DNA of 39,308 nt from a virus. Lineage: Duplodnaviria > Heunggongvirae > Uroviricota > Caudoviricetes. Where the stretch lies: the IMG/VR virus record IMGVR_UViG_2703718775_000026; one strand, written 5' to 3'. The notes beneath the pieces were generated by a model. It ran no database searches and had not been told where the DNA came from. It saw nothing but the letters and a program-made list of their open reading frames with translations. The translations under genes and the position numbers were made by a program. Position 1 is the stretch's first letter. Each line of letters starts with the position of its first letter. This document shows positions 11,337 through 39,308 of the stretch, piece by piece.

Positions 11337-11837
11337 ATGCCAAAACTCCCCGCACCACTGCGTAAAAAGCTGATTGCCCTTGTTCTGGCCGGTGCCGGGA
11401 CGTTCACGATTGCCACGCATTACACCGGTTACTGGGAAGGGAAAGAAAACTCCACGTATATCGATCCCACCGGTACACCCACCATCTGTTACGGCCATAC
11501 CGGCCCGGATGTGAAACCGGGTATGACCCTGACGGATGAAGAATGCCTGGAACTACTGGAAAAGGACATGAAATGGGCCTTTGCGGCCATTGATCGGCGT
11601 GTTCAGGTGCCGCTTACCCGTGGTCAGACTGTGGCGCTGGCTTCGTGGATCTTCTGGGCCGGTGAAACGAACTTCCGCAACTCCACGCTTCTGCGCCTGA
11701 TCAATGCCGGGCAGATGCCCGCGTCCTGTAAGCAGTATATCCGCTGGATTTATTCAAAGGGGGTGAAACTCCCCGGCCTTGAGGCCCGCCGTTCGGCGGA
11801 TGAATGGTTATGTCGCTACGACTTGCCGAACGTCTGA
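11337..11837 (+). CDS. lys: Phage lysozyme (T4-type endolysin), probable SAR endolysin
   Basis: 166 aa; catalytic-region motif E..ENSTYIDPTGTPTICYGHTG; N-terminal weakly hydrophobic Gly/Ala-rich segment KKLIALVLAGAGTFTIATHY. Confidence 0.75.
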   Translation: MPKLPAPLRKKLIALVLAGAGTFTIATHYTGYWEGKENSTYIDPTGTPTICYGHTGPDVKPGMTLTDEECLELLEKDMKWAFAAIDRRVQVPLTRGQTVALASWIFWAGETNFRNSTLLRLINAGQMPASCKQYIRWIYSKGVKLPGLEARRSADEWLCRYDLPNV

Positions 11838-35225: not shown

Positions 35226-37283
35226 ATGAATATTATGACGTCCAAATGGGTTCAACTATCATCAATGCCCGGAAACTTTACCGTTAAAGTTTCCGGTGGT
35301 ACAGCGGCATTTCTTGAGGCTCCCTTTCCTCCTGCTGAAACGAAAGGAGGAATGACATTTGCTGACTGTCTCATCAGTTTTAATACACAGGATTGCCTGT
35401 GGGTAAGGCCAGTATCCGGTGATCCGAACGTGGAAATTACCGGAGCGGGTATTGGTGCTGTCATTCCGTTAAGTGCTGATGTTGCCGGTACTACTGAACC
35501 GTCAGACTGGGATAATGCAGAAACACATACCCGTCCGGCAGGAAATGAAACGGCTTCCAGCTCCCCTTCCTGGTATTACGTGATTGTTATAGCCGGCCAG
35601 TCCAATGCTTCATCTTATGGTGAAGGGTTGCCCCTTCCGGATTCTTATGATCGTCCTGATCCACGTATTATGCAGCTGGCACGCAGGAATACACAAACCC
35701 CCGGAGGTATTCCCTGCAAATACAATGAAATCATTCCAGCAGATCACTGCCTTCATGATGTTCAGAATATGAGTCTGCTGAACCATCCAAAAGCAGACCT
35801 GAAAAAAGGGCAGTATGGTTGTGTGGGGCAGGGACTTCATATTGCGAAAAAAGTATTACCGGTGATTCCTGCTGATGCCGGGATTTTACTGGTTCCCTGT
35901 GCCCGTGGCGGCTCTGCTTTTACAACCGGCGCAGTTGGCTCATTCGATCCGGCAAGTGGTGCAGCCGAGGCGTCACTACGCTGGGGAGTGGATACCCCAC
36001 TGTATCAGGATCTTGTCAGTCGAACTAAAGCGGCACTTGAGGCGAATCCAAAGAATGTGCTGTTATCTGTCGTATGGATTCAGGGGGAAGGAGACCTTAA
36101 AGCGACCCCGGCCCAGCATGGTGCCCAGTTTACTGCGATGGTGAAAAAATTCCGTGCGGATCTTGGTGCTTTCTCCGGTCAGTGTATTGGTGGTTCATCA
36201 GACAGTGTGCCGTGGTTATGTGGTGACACAACCTATGACTGGAAAGAGAAGAACCCAGCGGCATATGAAACCATTTATAGCGGATATAAAAACCGGGCTT
36301 CCGAGAACATTCACTTTGTTCCACTGATGCACGATGAGTTCGGTAATAAAACCGCGACCAACCTGCCGGAGCACGACCCGGATATCGCTTCTGCCGGGTA
36401 TTATGGTGCGGAATCACGGGGAGATGGCAACTGGACAACAGCATCCAGGGCAACCCATTTTAGCTCCTGGGCGCGCCGTTTTCTGGTCTCAGATCGTTTT
36501 GCATCAGCAATTCTTAAATATGCAGGTCTGACCTCTGCATTTATTGCCGGTGTGGCCCCTGATGGTGAAGCCCTGCCTCAGCCCGCGCCGGGTGGGAAAC
36601 CGGAAGCGCCGACAGGTAGTCAGCCAGGAGGCAGTGAGTCCCCCCATCCGACATCCCCGTCACTCCGTACGCTGCTTTCACTTAAAGCATCAGCAGGAGA
36701 AGCCCCGGCTCAGGGCTGGAAAATTACAGATGGTACAATCCAGCTGACGGACGAAGGTAAAGCGTTGACCGTATCCAAACAAAGCGGAAAAACCTGGGCG
36801 CTTACCCATGGAACTGATGCAGCCGGTGAACTTCTGAAGCATGGTGGTCAGTTGACCTGTAAATTCCGTCTGTCAGGTGAAGTAAAAGAAGGCCAGTTTG
36901 CTCTGGGTATTTACCTCCACACCGATACGGTCCCGGAAGGTGTAACCATGAGTGGTACAGGCACACCGTTCCTGATGGCGTATTATCTCCAGACAACAGG
37001 CGGCCAGTTAAATCTGATGCACCATAAAACAGGGGGGAATACGAAACTGGGATCATTTGGAGCCTACAATAACCAGTGGCATACACTTGTCCTGAAGTTT
37101 ACGGCGGGAAGTGCCCAGGTAACGCCTGTGCTGGATGGCACTCCGGGCCAGGCATTCCAGATGGTGAAAGATGCACTTTCCCCTGCCAAAGATACGCTGA
37201 CACTGACAGATGTCACCAAAGGGGCAACTTATGGCGTGTCTTTTGAGAGCGTTGTCCTTGAGGTTAATACCCCTGCGGCATAA
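35226..37283 (+). CDS. SGNH/GDSL-type esterase (sialate/carbohydrate O-acetylesterase-like) with C-terminal lectin-like domain; cargo protein
   Basis: 685 aa. GQSN nucleophile motif (VIVIAGQSNASSYGEG, nt about 35595-35606), WIQGEGD block and later His/Asp candidates; C-terminal ~200 aa with beta-rich, lectin-like composition. Architecture resembles prophage NanS-p-type esterases. Confidence 0.55.
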   Translation: MNIMTSKWVQLSSMPGNFTVKVSGGTAAFLEAPFPPAETKGGMTFADCLISFNTQDCLWVRPVSGDPNVEITGAGIGAVIPLSADVAGTTEPSDWDNAETHTRPAGNETASSSPSWYYVIVIAGQSNASSYGEGLPLPDSYDRPDPRIMQLARRNTQTPGGIPCKYNEIIPADHCLHDVQNMSLLNHPKADLKKGQYGCVGQGLHIAKKVLPVIPADAGILLVPCARGGSAFTTGAVGSFDPASGAAEASLRWGVDTPLYQDLVSRTKAALEANPKNVLLSVVWIQGEGDLKATPAQHGAQFTAMVKKFRADLGAFSGQCIGGSSDSVPWLCGDTTYDWKEKNPAAYETIYSGYKNRASENIHFVPLMHDEFGNKTATNLPEHDPDIASAGYYGAESRGDGNWTTASRATHFSSWARRFLVSDRFASAILKYAGLTSAFIAGVAPDGEALPQPAPGGKPEAPTGSQPGGSESPHPTSPSLRTLLSLKASAGEAPAQGWKITDGTIQLTDEGKALTVSKQSGKTWALTHGTDAAGELLKHGGQLTCKFRLSGEVKEGQFALGIYLHTDTVPEGVTMSGTGTPFLMAYYLQTTGGQLNLMHHKTGGNTKLGSFGAYNNQWHTLVLKFTAGSAQVTPVLDGTPGQAFQMVKDALSPAKDTLTLTDVTKGATYGVSFESVVLEVNTPAA

Positions 37284-37340
37284 TCGTGACGGCCGGGAAT
37301 TTATCCGGCTGTAACATCAGTTAATAAGAGTGAGGCTTAT

Positions 37341-37520
37341 ATGACATATATAAACGTCTGCCTGCTGTATTTCTGCACGGTGGTTTGTTGTCTGTTGCTT
37401 GTCAGCGGTGGTTATAAAATTATTCGCAATTATTTTCGAAATAAAATTGATGCAGCTGCCGAGGAAAAGATAAAAAGCGGTGCTGTAATGCCGCAGCCGA
37501 AAGACTCCGGTCAGATTTAA
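37341..37520 (+). CDS. Small hydrophobic membrane peptide (59 aa)
   Basis: ATG with GAGTGAGG upstream; MTYINVCLLYFCTVVCCLLLVSGGYKIIRNYFRNK... has an N-terminal TM helix and basic tail. Not in the ORF track (below the length cutoff). Confidence 0.4.
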   Translation: MTYINVCLLYFCTVVCCLLLVSGGYKIIRNYFRNKIDAAAEEKIKSGAVMPQPKDSGQI

Positions 37521-37555
37521 TTTTTTGTGAACCAGAAAAGGAAAGGAGAATATTC

Positions 37556-37801
37556 ATGCCAGAGATTAAAGGCACGGTTACTGAAGAGCTTGTCAAACAG
37601 GCACTTTATTCTGAAGAAGTGAACCGCGTGCTGAAGGCGCAGGTTCGCAAGGATTTTGAGGCACAAATCGACGCATATGTTGATGAAGTGCTGGCCCGAA
37701 TGGTTGGTCGTTCTCCGGCTGAAAACAGCACGGAAAATGAGCCTCAACCCGTAGAGCAACCAGAGCCGGTTCAGCCCGGAACTGACGGTACTATGATGTA
37801 A
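37556..37801 (+). CDS. Hypothetical acidic protein (81 aa)
   Basis: Strong RBS AAAGGAAAGGAGA; helical N-terminus and Pro/Glu-rich C-terminus. Confidence 0.5.
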   Translation: MPEIKGTVTEELVKQALYSEEVNRVLKAQVRKDFEAQIDAYVDEVLARMVGRSPAENSTENEPQPVEQPEPVQPGTDGTMM

Positions 37802-37810
37802 CAATACCGA

Positions 37811-37830
37811 CCGGCAGGTTTCCCTGCCGG
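37811..37830. terminator. Hairpin between convergent small genes (possible bidirectional terminator)
   Basis: CCGGCAGG-TTTC-CCTGCCGG with moderately T-rich flanks on both strands. Confidence 0.35.
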
Positions 37831-37839
37831 GTGAATTTG

Positions 37840-38010
37840 TTAATGCACGTTTTGTGTATTTTCCCTCCGGGGAGAACAGGCAGGACATATCAGCATCCTG
37901 AAACAGGAAGCATTTTTTGGTTTGTATGTCTTGCCATTTTGAGATCGAGAACGGCGATAGATGAGCTGTAAGGGAGTCTTACAGGCAGGGCAAACAGGCT
38001 CTTTATCCAT
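37840..38010 (-). CDS. Small zinc-ribbon protein (two CPAC motifs), 56 aa
   Basis: Minus-strand ATG (MDKEPVCPACKTPLQ...ICPACSPRR...) with AAGGAG 8 nt upstream; inside minus ORF 37840-38034. Confidence 0.45.
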   Translation of the reverse strand: MDKEPVCPACKTPLQLIYRRSRSQNGKTYKPKNASCFRMLICPACSPRRENTQNVH

Positions 38011-38118
38011 GATAAAGATCTCCTTTTTATGCATCTCTGCTTTACAGGAGACCGGGGAATATCATAGGATACGCCACGAGCTCGAAGTAAAGCATTGATG
38101 CAAGTTTTTACAGATTGA

Positions 38119-38156
38119 CCCAGCATAGTTCCAGCTATGCTGGGTTTCCCTTTTAT
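38119..38156 (+). terminator. Rho-independent terminator-like hairpin upstream of com-mom
   Basis: Perfect 10-bp stem CCCAGCATAG / CTATGCTGGG with 6-nt loop, followed by TTTCCCTTTTAT. Confidence 0.55.
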
Positions 38157-38189
38157 GTAGTATCCTGTTGATTTGAAACATACTACATA

Positions 38190-38416
38190 TACGCGCGATC
38201 CTACCTTCACTGTATAAAAAGTCAATAAAATGATCATTTTATGATCGTTTTCACCACCTAACTCTTCGTTTCTTTAAGTAAATAATCACCGCCCTGAATC
38301 ATTGTTGATGACTTTTAAATCTATTTGTTGTATCAATTAAACAAATCGAATCGATCGTTTTTGTCGATCGATTGCATGAGAAAGGCATCAACAACAAAGC
38401 AGGAGGTTATGCGGCC
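38190..38416 (+). promoter_or_regulatory. Putative mom-operon regulatory region with clustered Dam (GATC) sites
   Basis: Five GATC within about 175 bp (about 38197, 38232, 38243, 38353, 38366), arranged as two repeat pairs: TGATCATTTTATGATCGTTTT and ATCGATCGTTTTTGTCGATCGAT. Confidence 0.5.
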
Positions 38417-38617
38417 ATGTATCGAAACATACGGTGCCGACACTGCAATAAGCTACTGGCACGGGCCAGTTTCAGTTATCTGGAAGTAAAATGTCCGCGC
38501 TGTAAAACCCTCAATCAAATCACATCTCCGAGCGCCACAGAGCACCCCACATACACAAGGAAATCCTGTCGTGGGGAACAGAAAGCAAGTCACATCCCGT
38601 ATCATCAGCACGCCTGA
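38417..38617 (+). CDS. com: Com-like zinc-finger translational activator of mom
   Basis: ATG with AGCAGGAGG RBS; [35 protein letters not shown] resembles Mu Com (...IRCKNCNKLL...IEIRCPRCKR...); overlaps the mom start. Confidence 0.7.
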
Positions 38618-39308
38618 ACTTATTCGCTATAACGACAATATCGTTGGTTATGGCTCCCGTGAGTTGCGGGTTGAGACAATAAGTTGCTGGCTGGCCAGAC
38701 TGGTTATCGTCAATAAACATTACAGCCACCGTTTCGTAAATAATTCCTACCTTCATCTGGGTATATTTTCAGAACGGGAACTTGTTGGCGTAATGCAATG
38801 GGGTTACGCCCTTAACCCAAACAGTGGTGCACGCGTCGTAACGGGTACGCAGAACCGAGAATATATGGAGCTTAACCGGCTATGGATGCATGACTGTATG
38901 CCGAGAAACTCCGAATCAAGGGCAATCAGTTACGCGCTCAAGCTAATCAGGCAGCTTTATCCGCAGGTACAGTGGGTTCAGTCGTTTGCAGATGAGCGTT
39001 GTGGCTGTCTTGGTGTCGTGTATCAGGCAAGCAATTTTGATTATGTAGGCAGCCATGAATCAACATTCTATGAACTTGATGGCGAGTGGTATCACGAGAT
39101 TTGCAGGAGTGCCATTAAACGAGGCGGACAACGAGGTGAACATCTGAGGGCTAATATCGACAGAGCCAGTGTGCATAAGTTCCGACAGTTTCGTTACATC
39201 CGGTTTCTGAACAAGAGGGCCAGAAAACGCCTCAACACAAAGCTATTCAAAGTCCAGCCTTACCCAAAACCACAAACAGTTAAAACTGGTTTGAAAGAGA
39301 GTGAATGA
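38571..39308 (+). CDS. mom: Mom-like DNA modification protein (adenine modification, anti-restriction); start uncertain
   Basis: 245-aa ORF overlapping the com 3' end, stop at window end; position downstream of gin and com as in Mu. Confidence 0.65.

Follow-up and report, generated by a model that had tools for sequence, protein, structure and literature searches.

The small genes between gin and com of a Mu-like Escherichia coli prophage: a probable esterase-cassette tail and a separate zinc-ribbon unit

Introduction

Do three short genes that lie side by side in a prophage belong together, and what are they likely to do? The question is raised by a virus record of 39,308 nucleotides (nt), IMGVR_UViG_2703718775_000026 (below, the window, meaning this whole stretch; coordinates are those of the window unless another locus is named). 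It is a Mu-like Escherichia coli prophage, and three small open reading frames (ORFs) sit in it at 37341–38010, between gin and com/mom. A first-pass annotation, made from the sequence alone, had described them as one accessory module of toxin-like or exclusion-like character. The ORFs are indeed present, with the strands and sizes described, but their grouping into one module did not survive the comparison of loci. The two plus-strand genes travel with an esterase gene in three phage backbones, while the minus-strand gene, here called znr, goes with the com/mom region; znr occurs without the pair, and the pair occurs without znr. The arrangement is probably that of two independent units. The first, formed by a DUF1378 gene and a DUF826 gene (37341–37801, plus strand), would be an optional two-gene tail of the NanS-p-type esterase cassette, here placed between gin and com. 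The second (37840 to about 38200, minus strand) would be a self-contained unit of znr and its leader, transcribed away from the mom control region, with znr as one of several alternative cargos.

The DUF1378/DUF826 pair

The first gene of the pair (37341–37520, plus strand) encodes a protein of 59 amino acids (aa) from the DUF1378 family. The Pfam match (PF07125) scores 83.8 bits against a cut-off of 25 (E = 9e-24) and aligns residues 1–48 with positions 1–48 of the 59-position model. The ORF also matches phrog_494 (E = 4e-29), and the Prokaryotic Genome Annotation Pipeline (PGAP) calls a "DUF1378 family protein" at the same coordinates. The hydrophobic stretch at residues 4–22 (Kyte-Doolittle 19-residue mean 2.46) is preceded by no charge and followed at once by K26, R29, R33 and K35, the isoelectric point (pI) of the protein being 8.8, so the earlier description of a single hydrophobic helix with a basic tail holds. 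In the family, the transmembrane segment LLYFCTVVCxLYLVSGGYK is strongly conserved; it is followed by a conserved basic helix, IRNYxRRKIDxAAAEK, and then by a variable tail. The protein is predicted from these features to be a single-pass inner-membrane protein with the N-out/C-in topology, the cytoplasmic location of the tail following from the positive-inside rule.

The second gene (37556–37801, plus strand) encodes an 81-aa protein of the DUF826 family (PF05696; 56.5 bits against a cut-off of 25, E = 3e-15, residues 1–52), which also matches phrog_311 (E = 5e-30) and is a "DUF826 domain-containing protein" for PGAP. It is acidic, as noted before, and predicted to be cytoplasmic, with a pI of 4.4 and 16 Asp and Glu residues, and the expected ribosome-binding site is there, GGAGA 7 nt before the ATG. 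The AlphaFold2 model has helices at residues 10–17 and 20–50, with the predicted local distance difference test score (pLDDT) of up to 96, and a disordered acidic Pro-rich tail. The tails of the aligned DUF826 proteins differ widely in length, and nearly all of them end in a hydrophobic tip, ..TMM, ..MMM, ..TML or ..MML (in the window, 37770–37801). The tip pattern, ..P[DE]xxxM[ML]-COOH, looks like a short C-terminal docking motif.

For the cores of DUF1378 and DUF826, the ratio of non-synonymous to synonymous divergence (dN/dS) amounts to 0.15 and 0.26, respectively, and the corresponding ratios of polymorphism (pN/pS) within the Mu-like phages alone are 0.32 and 0.23. These low values mark both as real, constrained protein-coding genes.

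The gene upstream of the pair (35226–37283, plus strand), the head of the cassette, encodes a NanS-p-type sialate O-acetylesterase of 685 aa with the Pfam domains SASA and DUF6645. Hence the window has the gene order of a NanS-p cassette, a SASA (SGNH) esterase with the C-terminal DUF6645 followed on the same strand by DUF1378 and DUF826.

We collected 80 IMG/VR loci with the DUF1378 profile and scored the neighbouring genes. The esterase is immediately upstream on the same strand in 78 loci, and the other two start at a contig edge; DUF826 is downstream in 79 of the 80. The backbones are Mu-like in 29 cases (gin upstream, com/mom downstream), lambdoid in about 50, and P2-like in one. In the lambdoid loci, the pair is followed by an S21-type holin and a lysozyme. 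In VT2-Sakai, the order is esterase, the 59-aa DUF1378 ORF, the DUF826 ORF, holin S and endolysin R, so that the pair lies between Q/stx and the holin, and PhiR12_4, a lambdoid phage that does not carry Shiga toxin (Stx), has the same layout. The presence of DUF826 and DUF1378 ORFs between nanS-p and S was already noted, with no function given, in a survey of Stx2a phages (PMC10462455). The P2-like locus has the order holin, endolysin, Rz, esterase, DUF1378, tail-completion genes. Finally, the same layout recurs at ten separate chromosomal sites in another Mu-like lineage, which was detected by a DUF826 of 72% identity. The conservation across related prophages which the first-pass annotation had made a test of its ORFs is observed: DUF1378 is found in 80 IMG/VR loci and DUF826 in 79 of them, both under purifying selection, and the homologue of znr described below keeps its four Cys residues.

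The cassette of the window is close to that of Stx and other lambdoid prophages (933W, the orf42–orf43 region of VT2-Sakai, PhiR12) in the order, orientation and Pfam families of the genes, with comparable sizes and gaps. Compared to VT2-Sakai, the window has an esterase body of 53% identity, a DUF1378 of 48% and a DUF826 of 41%. Unlike the lambdoid cassettes, that of the window lies between gin and com of a transposable prophage rather than between Q/stx and the holin, with no holin behind the pair; its esterase has no DUF1737 domain; and the gap between the esterase and DUF1378 is 57 nt, compared to about 140 nt in other alleles in the alignment of the gaps.

The spacer behind the esterase is itself variable. 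In the window, a short GC hairpin without a T-run, GCCGG-N8-CCGGC (37291–37309, plus strand), directly follows the stop codon. In most alleles, an A-run and a GC-rich hairpin, GCCGCCGG..CCGGCGGC (L002 5651–5700, L005 5639–5690, L003 4864–4910), come after the stop; read on the minus strand, they look like a leftward terminator, a hairpin with a T-run. The window allele lacks this element and about 90 nt of the spacer beyond it.

The 80 loci contain 43 distinct esterase/DUF1378/DUF826 haplotypes, with each ORF copy intact, and the correlations between the pairwise identities of the three genes fall off with the distance on the DNA. Hence recombination is frequent within the cassette. The named members of the DUF1378 family all come from Escherichia or Shigella. 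A scan of the GTDB species representatives with the DUF1378 profile yielded 600 pattern matches, of which none was confirmed, as would fit a family confined to the prophages of these two genera. The suggestion that ydfR or ybcW of E. coli K-12 belong to the two DUF families found no support in the Qin region and was dropped.

The zinc-ribbon gene

The znr gene (37840–38010, minus strand; coding 37843–38010) encodes 56 aa plus the stop codon. The earlier description of a convergent protein with two CPAC motifs and an AAGGAG ribosome-binding site stands: the candidate ligands are C7/C10 and C42/C45, and AAGGAG lies 9 nt before the ATG. The pI is 9.8. An alternative 64-aa version starting at 38034 has no Shine-Dalgarno sequence.

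An exhaustive HMMER search with the 56-aa protein yielded four clusters, containing only near-identical sequences and one distant relative, P0097, of 53 aa (47% identity, E = 2.7e-7), in which the four Cys and the GKTY.PK core are kept. The AlphaFold2 model (pLDDT 79) has four strands. The protein thus combines four conserved Cys in two CPXC pairs with a beta-strand fold, as zinc ribbons generally do, zinc binding being predicted only. Zinc-ribbon matches in Pfam were all sub-threshold, no Pfam, PHROG, NCBIfam or PADLOC family reached its cut-off, and the fold search gave nothing below E = 1. Given the Pfam matches, the low dN/dS and the znr homologue with its four Cys, the three ORFs of the locus are beyond chance.

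Where znr is found, it accompanies com rather than the esterase. P0097 occupies the same place in the same orientation in other Mu-like prophages, about 390 bp from com and divergent from it, and these prophages have neither gin nor the esterase cassette. It is a stand-alone 53-aa ORF with the same Shine-Dalgarno/ATG context and a terminator-like hairpin of its own, and no long ORF lies upstream. A tblastn search of the phage collection with P0097 found only two records with an inserted Mu-like phage. Behind P0097 are three further leftward genes, of 100, 81 and 122 aa (L113 6362–7274). The 122-aa protein has a weak partial match to PD-T4-7 in PADLOC (E = 0.0025, sub-threshold); it is the only PADLOC match among the alternative cargo proteins, and none of them has a Pfam match.

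On the other hand, sister Mu-like prophages with the same cassette have other genes between DUF826 and com, either an unrelated 97-aa ORF or an ORF of 68 or 76 aa. Among the 29 Mu-like loci, the slot is occupied by the zinc-ribbon gene in ten and by the 97-aa type in nine; six have neither, and four are truncated. The sister lineage's 97-aa ORF has a homologue in the 100-aa gene, second in the leftward series of L113 (29% identity over the full length, E = 4e-11). Together with the operon behind P0097, this homology suggests that the slot is what is left of an ancestral operon running leftward, the window having kept its first gene only. The znr gene is probably the promoter-proximal remnant of an operon that is intact in related Mu-like prophages.

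The units converge on an 8-bp hairpin, CCGGCAGG-TTTC-CCTGCCGG (37811–37830), between DUF826 and znr, which is kept in all variants aligned and probably marks the shared transcript end of the two genes; its T-runs are weak, and therefore the terminator scan missed it.

The closest known parallel to znr is Com of phage Mu (PF10122), the zinc-ribbon translational activator of mom. Both proteins are small (about 60 aa) and basic, have four Cys and belong to the mom control region. However, the Cys spacing of znr is CX2C-X31-CX2C, compared to CX2C-X17-CX2C in Com, the direction of transcription is opposite, and neither the 56-aa nor the 64-aa ORF matches Zn_ribbon_Com in Pfam, whereas com of the window does so with 46.1 bits. 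Most plausibly, znr encodes a small nucleic-acid-binding regulator.

What the pair may do

Several results weigh against reading the pair as a cassette tail with a late function next to a separate working znr gene. In the reverse search, which started from the esterase side and gave 69 informative loci closest to the esterase body of the window, 67 loci (63 lambdoid, 4 unassigned) lack both small genes; in these, the holin is situated 156–442 nt behind the esterase with no intervening ORF. The two remaining loci are Mu-like copies of the window's own type. The single P2-like locus has no DUF826 beside DUF1378. Allele matching between the esterase, DUF1378 and DUF826 was considered and rejected, as only the decay with distance was seen. 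Sequence searches of the PDB found no relatives of the three proteins, homology assigns no function to them, and PADLOC and NCBIfam gave no matches for the window proteins. Promoter-like matches were no commoner than in shuffled sequence for either unit. Some znr alleles are disrupted, by a frameshift after codon 2 or by C7Y, hence znr is dispensable in at least some prophages. Finally, the endolysin homologue of the window (11343–11762) is about 26 kb from the pair and no S21-type holin is detectable in the window, so that the position next to the lysis genes, seen in the lambdoid and P2-like relatives, is not reproduced here, yet the purifying selection persists.

The 67 loci rule out the pair as an obligatory partner of the esterase and make it an optional add-on to the cassette, not needed by the enzyme. 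The linkage is one-way and extends over three backbones, DUF1378 and DUF826 being tied to NanS-p-type esterases and not the reverse; this is a new, if modest, point.

The pair is presumably made together with the esterase, since the genes are co-oriented, the gaps are short and no convincing terminator lies between them; in the lambdoid phages, this means late expression. There the operon is Q-dependent, and nanS-p is induced by 1–2.4 log by mitomycin C (PMC10462455), which makes some late activity at the inner membrane, on its cytoplasmic side, the most economical proposal. The membrane protein DUF1378 and the acidic protein DUF826 would act together there in a late accessory function, modulating what happens at the membrane or in lysis, or else how the esterase is handled, rather than as a toxin–antitoxin or immunity module.

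A role in lysis or membrane timing can be put forward tentatively. It fits the shape of the pair and its neighbours, holins in the lambdoid phages and spanins in the P2-like one. Holins and antiholins generally have one transmembrane domain or more and a charged C-terminal tail, traits that the 59-aa protein shares, its tail being first basic and then of mixed charge, although they are no proof of membership. In phage T4, RI, a membrane protein, and RIII, a small cytoplasmic protein, are lysis regulators of the holin/antiholin type. The pair resembles them in that a small membrane protein with a charged tail goes with a small soluble acidic helical protein, and like lysis regulators it adjoins holin, endolysin or spanin genes in lambdoid and P2-like phages. 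Unlike RI and RIII, to which it has no sequence or family relation, the pair of the window is remote from the endolysin and has its linkage with the esterase, not with any particular holin.

Exclusion and conversion functions typically reside in small bitopic membrane proteins whose tail is cytoplasmic, and the 59-aa peptide, with or without DUF826, has this shape. It might therefore serve lysogenic conversion, superinfection exclusion or the modulation of a host inner-membrane protein, being expressed from the prophage. The pair is optional among related phages, AT-rich and confined to phages of Escherichia and Shigella, and the Mu-like context puts it behind gin, far from the lysis genes. 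Still, this seems unlikely: in about 50 lambdoid loci the Q-dependent late operon encloses the pair, with the esterase before it and the holin behind; no promoter of its own is evident, the esterase ending just 57 nt upstream in the window; and neither protein is similar to known exclusion or defence proteins, with no such family matched in Pfam, PHROGs or PADLOC.

The other suggestion of the first-pass annotation, a type I toxin controlled by the neighbouring small genes or by an antisense RNA, is highly improbable. In its favour are the small size and hydrophobicity of the peptide, its charged tail and the convergent transcription downstream, which could in principle provide an antisense RNA. 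However, it belongs to DUF1378, the only family that Pfam gives for it, and to none of the known toxin families (Hok, Ldr, Ibs, TisB, Fst and others); no PADLOC system matches it; and Rfam at E ≤ 1 yielded no antitoxin or antisense RNA, the one match being elsewhere in the window and at chance level. The scan showed no convincing minus-strand promoter facing the 59-aa gene. Its gene always comes second, behind a 2-kb esterase gene, in late operons, and DUF826 and a hairpin stand between it and the convergent gene, in whose place sister phages have unrelated genes. Literature retrieved under the old locus tags ECs1208, Z1467 and L0106 consisted of irrelevant papers only.

The esterase and its N-terminal domain

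[quoted passage not shown] PGAP places the start at 35265 and not at the first ATG, 35226. The P2-like esterase (L101 3788–6174) has a DUF1737-like N-terminus, and its cassette is situated between the Rz/Rz1 spanin and the tail-completion genes.

Over residues 1–118 (35226–35580), the identity to another Mu-like esterase (L002 3608–3960) is about 97%, whereas the remainder is about 55% identical and, in that other protein, resembles the lambdoid alleles. This domain of about 118 aa, common to the Mu-like esterases, has no Pfam match and stands in place of the lambdoid DUF1737. In the same prophage, DUF1378 is 59% identical and DUF826 is 100% identical to that of the window, and from about 37542, a point between the two genes, its DNA is homologous to that of the window. 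From these identity patterns it follows that the Mu-like lineage has retained an N-terminal domain and a DUF826 flank of its own, while esterase body and DUF1378 are traded with other phages, the catalytic and C-terminal parts of the enzyme with lambdoid alleles.

In phage phi24B, a 2026 preprint shows the esterase gp84 to be a capsid decoration protein whose N-terminal DUF1737 binds hexons (bioRxiv 10.64898/2026.04.10.717836). A backbone-specific N-terminal domain is what swappable anchors would be expected to produce, and the sequence comparison suggests that the Mu-like esterase may also be virion-attached, by a different, backbone-specific anchor.

These data bear on one more explanation of the pair, namely that DUF1378 and DUF826 are dedicated helpers that hold, fold or load a virion-displayed esterase, or control its release. 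DUF1378 is always behind the esterase wherever the upstream sequence is present, in all three backbones; gp84 is a virion protein; and the lineage-specific N-terminal domain of the window esterase fits an enzyme attached to the virion by swappable anchors. The explanation is nonetheless rather doubtful, since most of the close lambdoid esterases do without the pair, the alleles are not matched, a membrane anchor is odd for a helper of a capsid protein, and neither small virion proteins encoded beside gp84 nor the small genes next to it come up in the main text of the phi24B preprint.

The leader of znr and the annotated pseudogene

Upstream of znr is a structured leader of about 190 nt (38011–38200, minus strand) with three stem-loops, at approximately 38154–38189, 38118–38145 and 38030–38102. 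It folds with a z-score of −5.7 relative to shuffled sequence when the minus (znr) strand is taken, the plus strand giving −4.5. In four sequence versions, both arms of the hairpin 38118–38145 change together, so that the pairing is kept and the reading frame is not. The leader is conserved at the nucleotide level even in L113, where the encoded protein is only 47% identical, and other prophages have the same leader in front of different cargo genes, in some cases with a tandem duplication of the hairpin unit. In L036, L056 and L088, where the cargo gene is different, the duplicated unit of about 80 nt has the form ACTACATAAA..hairpin..GCATCAATGCTTTACTTCG.

RefSeq annotates this region differently. 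The PGAP "frameshifted hypothetical protein" at 37840–38302 consists mostly of a 115/135-aa ORF frame (37890–38302, minus strand; phrog_26524) that overlaps both znr and the leader, which would make znr the C-terminal end of an approximately 154-aa gene with a frameshift. Apart from the PGAP label and the match of the 115-aa ORF to phrog_26524, the existence of clusters with the full length, P0001 (154 aa, 205 member sequences) and P0002 (153 aa), speaks for this interpretation. We consider it improbable. The two clusters fuse the upstream frame to the znr frame at different points through different indels, the P0001 fusion arising from one additional G immediately behind codon 2 of znr. The indels that interrupt the upstream frame differ between the window and L002, and the common 135-aa form of this frame ends out of frame with znr; the non-triplet indels fall exactly at the hairpin whose pairing is preserved. 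In L113 the upstream frame is absent as an ORF, and the homologue of znr there stands alone behind the same Shine-Dalgarno/ATG context. By our reading of the alignment, the overlap has few substitutions, most of them synonymous in the znr frame but every one non-synonymous in the other.

A decayed HicB-like minus-strand gene of 154 aa was rejected on account of the unstable frames, the independent fusions, the covarying hairpin and the stand-alone homologue. The unstable frame, the covariation, the nucleotide conservation and the strong folding lead us to read the region as a structured non-coding leader with chance ORFs. Thus the 115/135-aa frame is most likely not a gene, and the 154-aa pseudogene of PGAP most likely an artefact of ORFs overlying the leader.

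The leftward unit begins just past a cluster of GATC sites (38349–38373, upstream of com), sites of the Dam/OxyR type that belong to the mom control region and are kept in L113. In Mu, RNA polymerase occupies a divergent promoter, momP2, when the activator C is absent (PMC3378877). By analogy, a momP2-like divergent promoter could feed the znr unit. Speculatively, and with little confidence, the leader may be a new cis-regulatory RNA or insulator of Mu-like phages, a platform for the leftward expression of interchangeable cargo genes. Such a platform, perhaps fed by a promoter of the momP2 type, would be tied to the Dam/OxyR/C switch, and the znr protein would act on it as Com acts on the mom mRNA. 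Alternatively, the leader region is a plus-strand terminator that shields mom from upstream transcription; read on the plus strand, the hairpin 38117–38146 is the best terminator-like site of the region.

The right end of the prophage

A near-identical copy of the window prophage is found in E. coli 2012C-4502 (NZ_CP027440). The PGAP order there is baseplate, tail-fibre and tail-fibre-assembly genes, the invertase gin, a 2-kb "DUF6645 domain-containing protein", DUF1378, DUF826, a minus-strand "hypothetical protein, frameshifted", com, the Mom-family gene and the disrupted host gene melA. The truncated melA (L001 8155–9201) abuts the right end of the prophage, as expected for a transposing Mu-like phage inserted at this point; other copies of the prophage occupy many different chromosomal sites. 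The 1,097-bp region around the three ORFs is present in 217 of 5,426 complete E. coli genomes, in 43 of them at full length.

The com gene (38414–38617, plus strand) has the Pfam domain Zn_ribbon_Com (PF10122, E = 3e-12), and mom (38571–39308, plus strand) has the domain Mom (E = 8.5e-77); PGAP annotates both. For com, the ORF list gives an 81-aa form starting with TTG (38372–38617), while PGAP and Pfam favour the 67-aa form with the ATG at 38414. The modification gene under the control of com may be swapped, as in some Mu-like prophages mom is replaced, immediately behind com, by the gene for a 350-aa C5 DNA cytosine methyltransferase (PF00145; L002 7033–8085, L113 4398–5450).

Phage Mu itself has only 95 bp from the end of gin to com and nothing equivalent to the three ORFs, in agreement with the earlier statement that none of them matched a recognised Mu gene. 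Compared to Mu, the window thus has additional DNA from about 35.2 to 38.3 kb. The region was also said to be visibly more AT-rich than the backbone. The difference itself is real, the G+C content of 37341–38010 being 46.0% vs. 57.0% for the backbone at 10–32 kb, but it is not particular to these ORFs, since the entire right end from 32.5 kb, including com–mom (47%), is equally AT-rich.

Phage morons, such as bor and lom of lambda, are accessory genes inserted between conserved phage genes. The three genes resemble them in being absent from Mu, lower in G+C than the backbone and variable among close relatives, and the zinc-ribbon unit has a leader and an end hairpin of its own. This much of the moron proposal made for the locus has been borne out, the pair being present or absent in otherwise similar lambdoid late operons and the minus-strand slot being variable. 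Unlike morons, the plus-strand pair has no sign of an independent promoter or terminator and is inside the late operon in lambdoid phages.

Implications

The new points are modest, namely the one-way linkage of the pair, the swap of the esterase N-terminus in the Mu lineage, and znr with its structured leader under a pseudogene annotation, and they do not overturn the current understanding. Two of the three ORFs belong to families already named, DUF1378 and DUF826, and are to be read together with the upstream esterase gene, while a genuine gene of 56 aa and a structured non-coding element lie concealed under the RefSeq "frameshifted pseudogene". The DUF1378/DUF826 pair, which follows the esterases across three backbones, is a set of defined, testable "known unknowns" of the medically relevant Stx phages.

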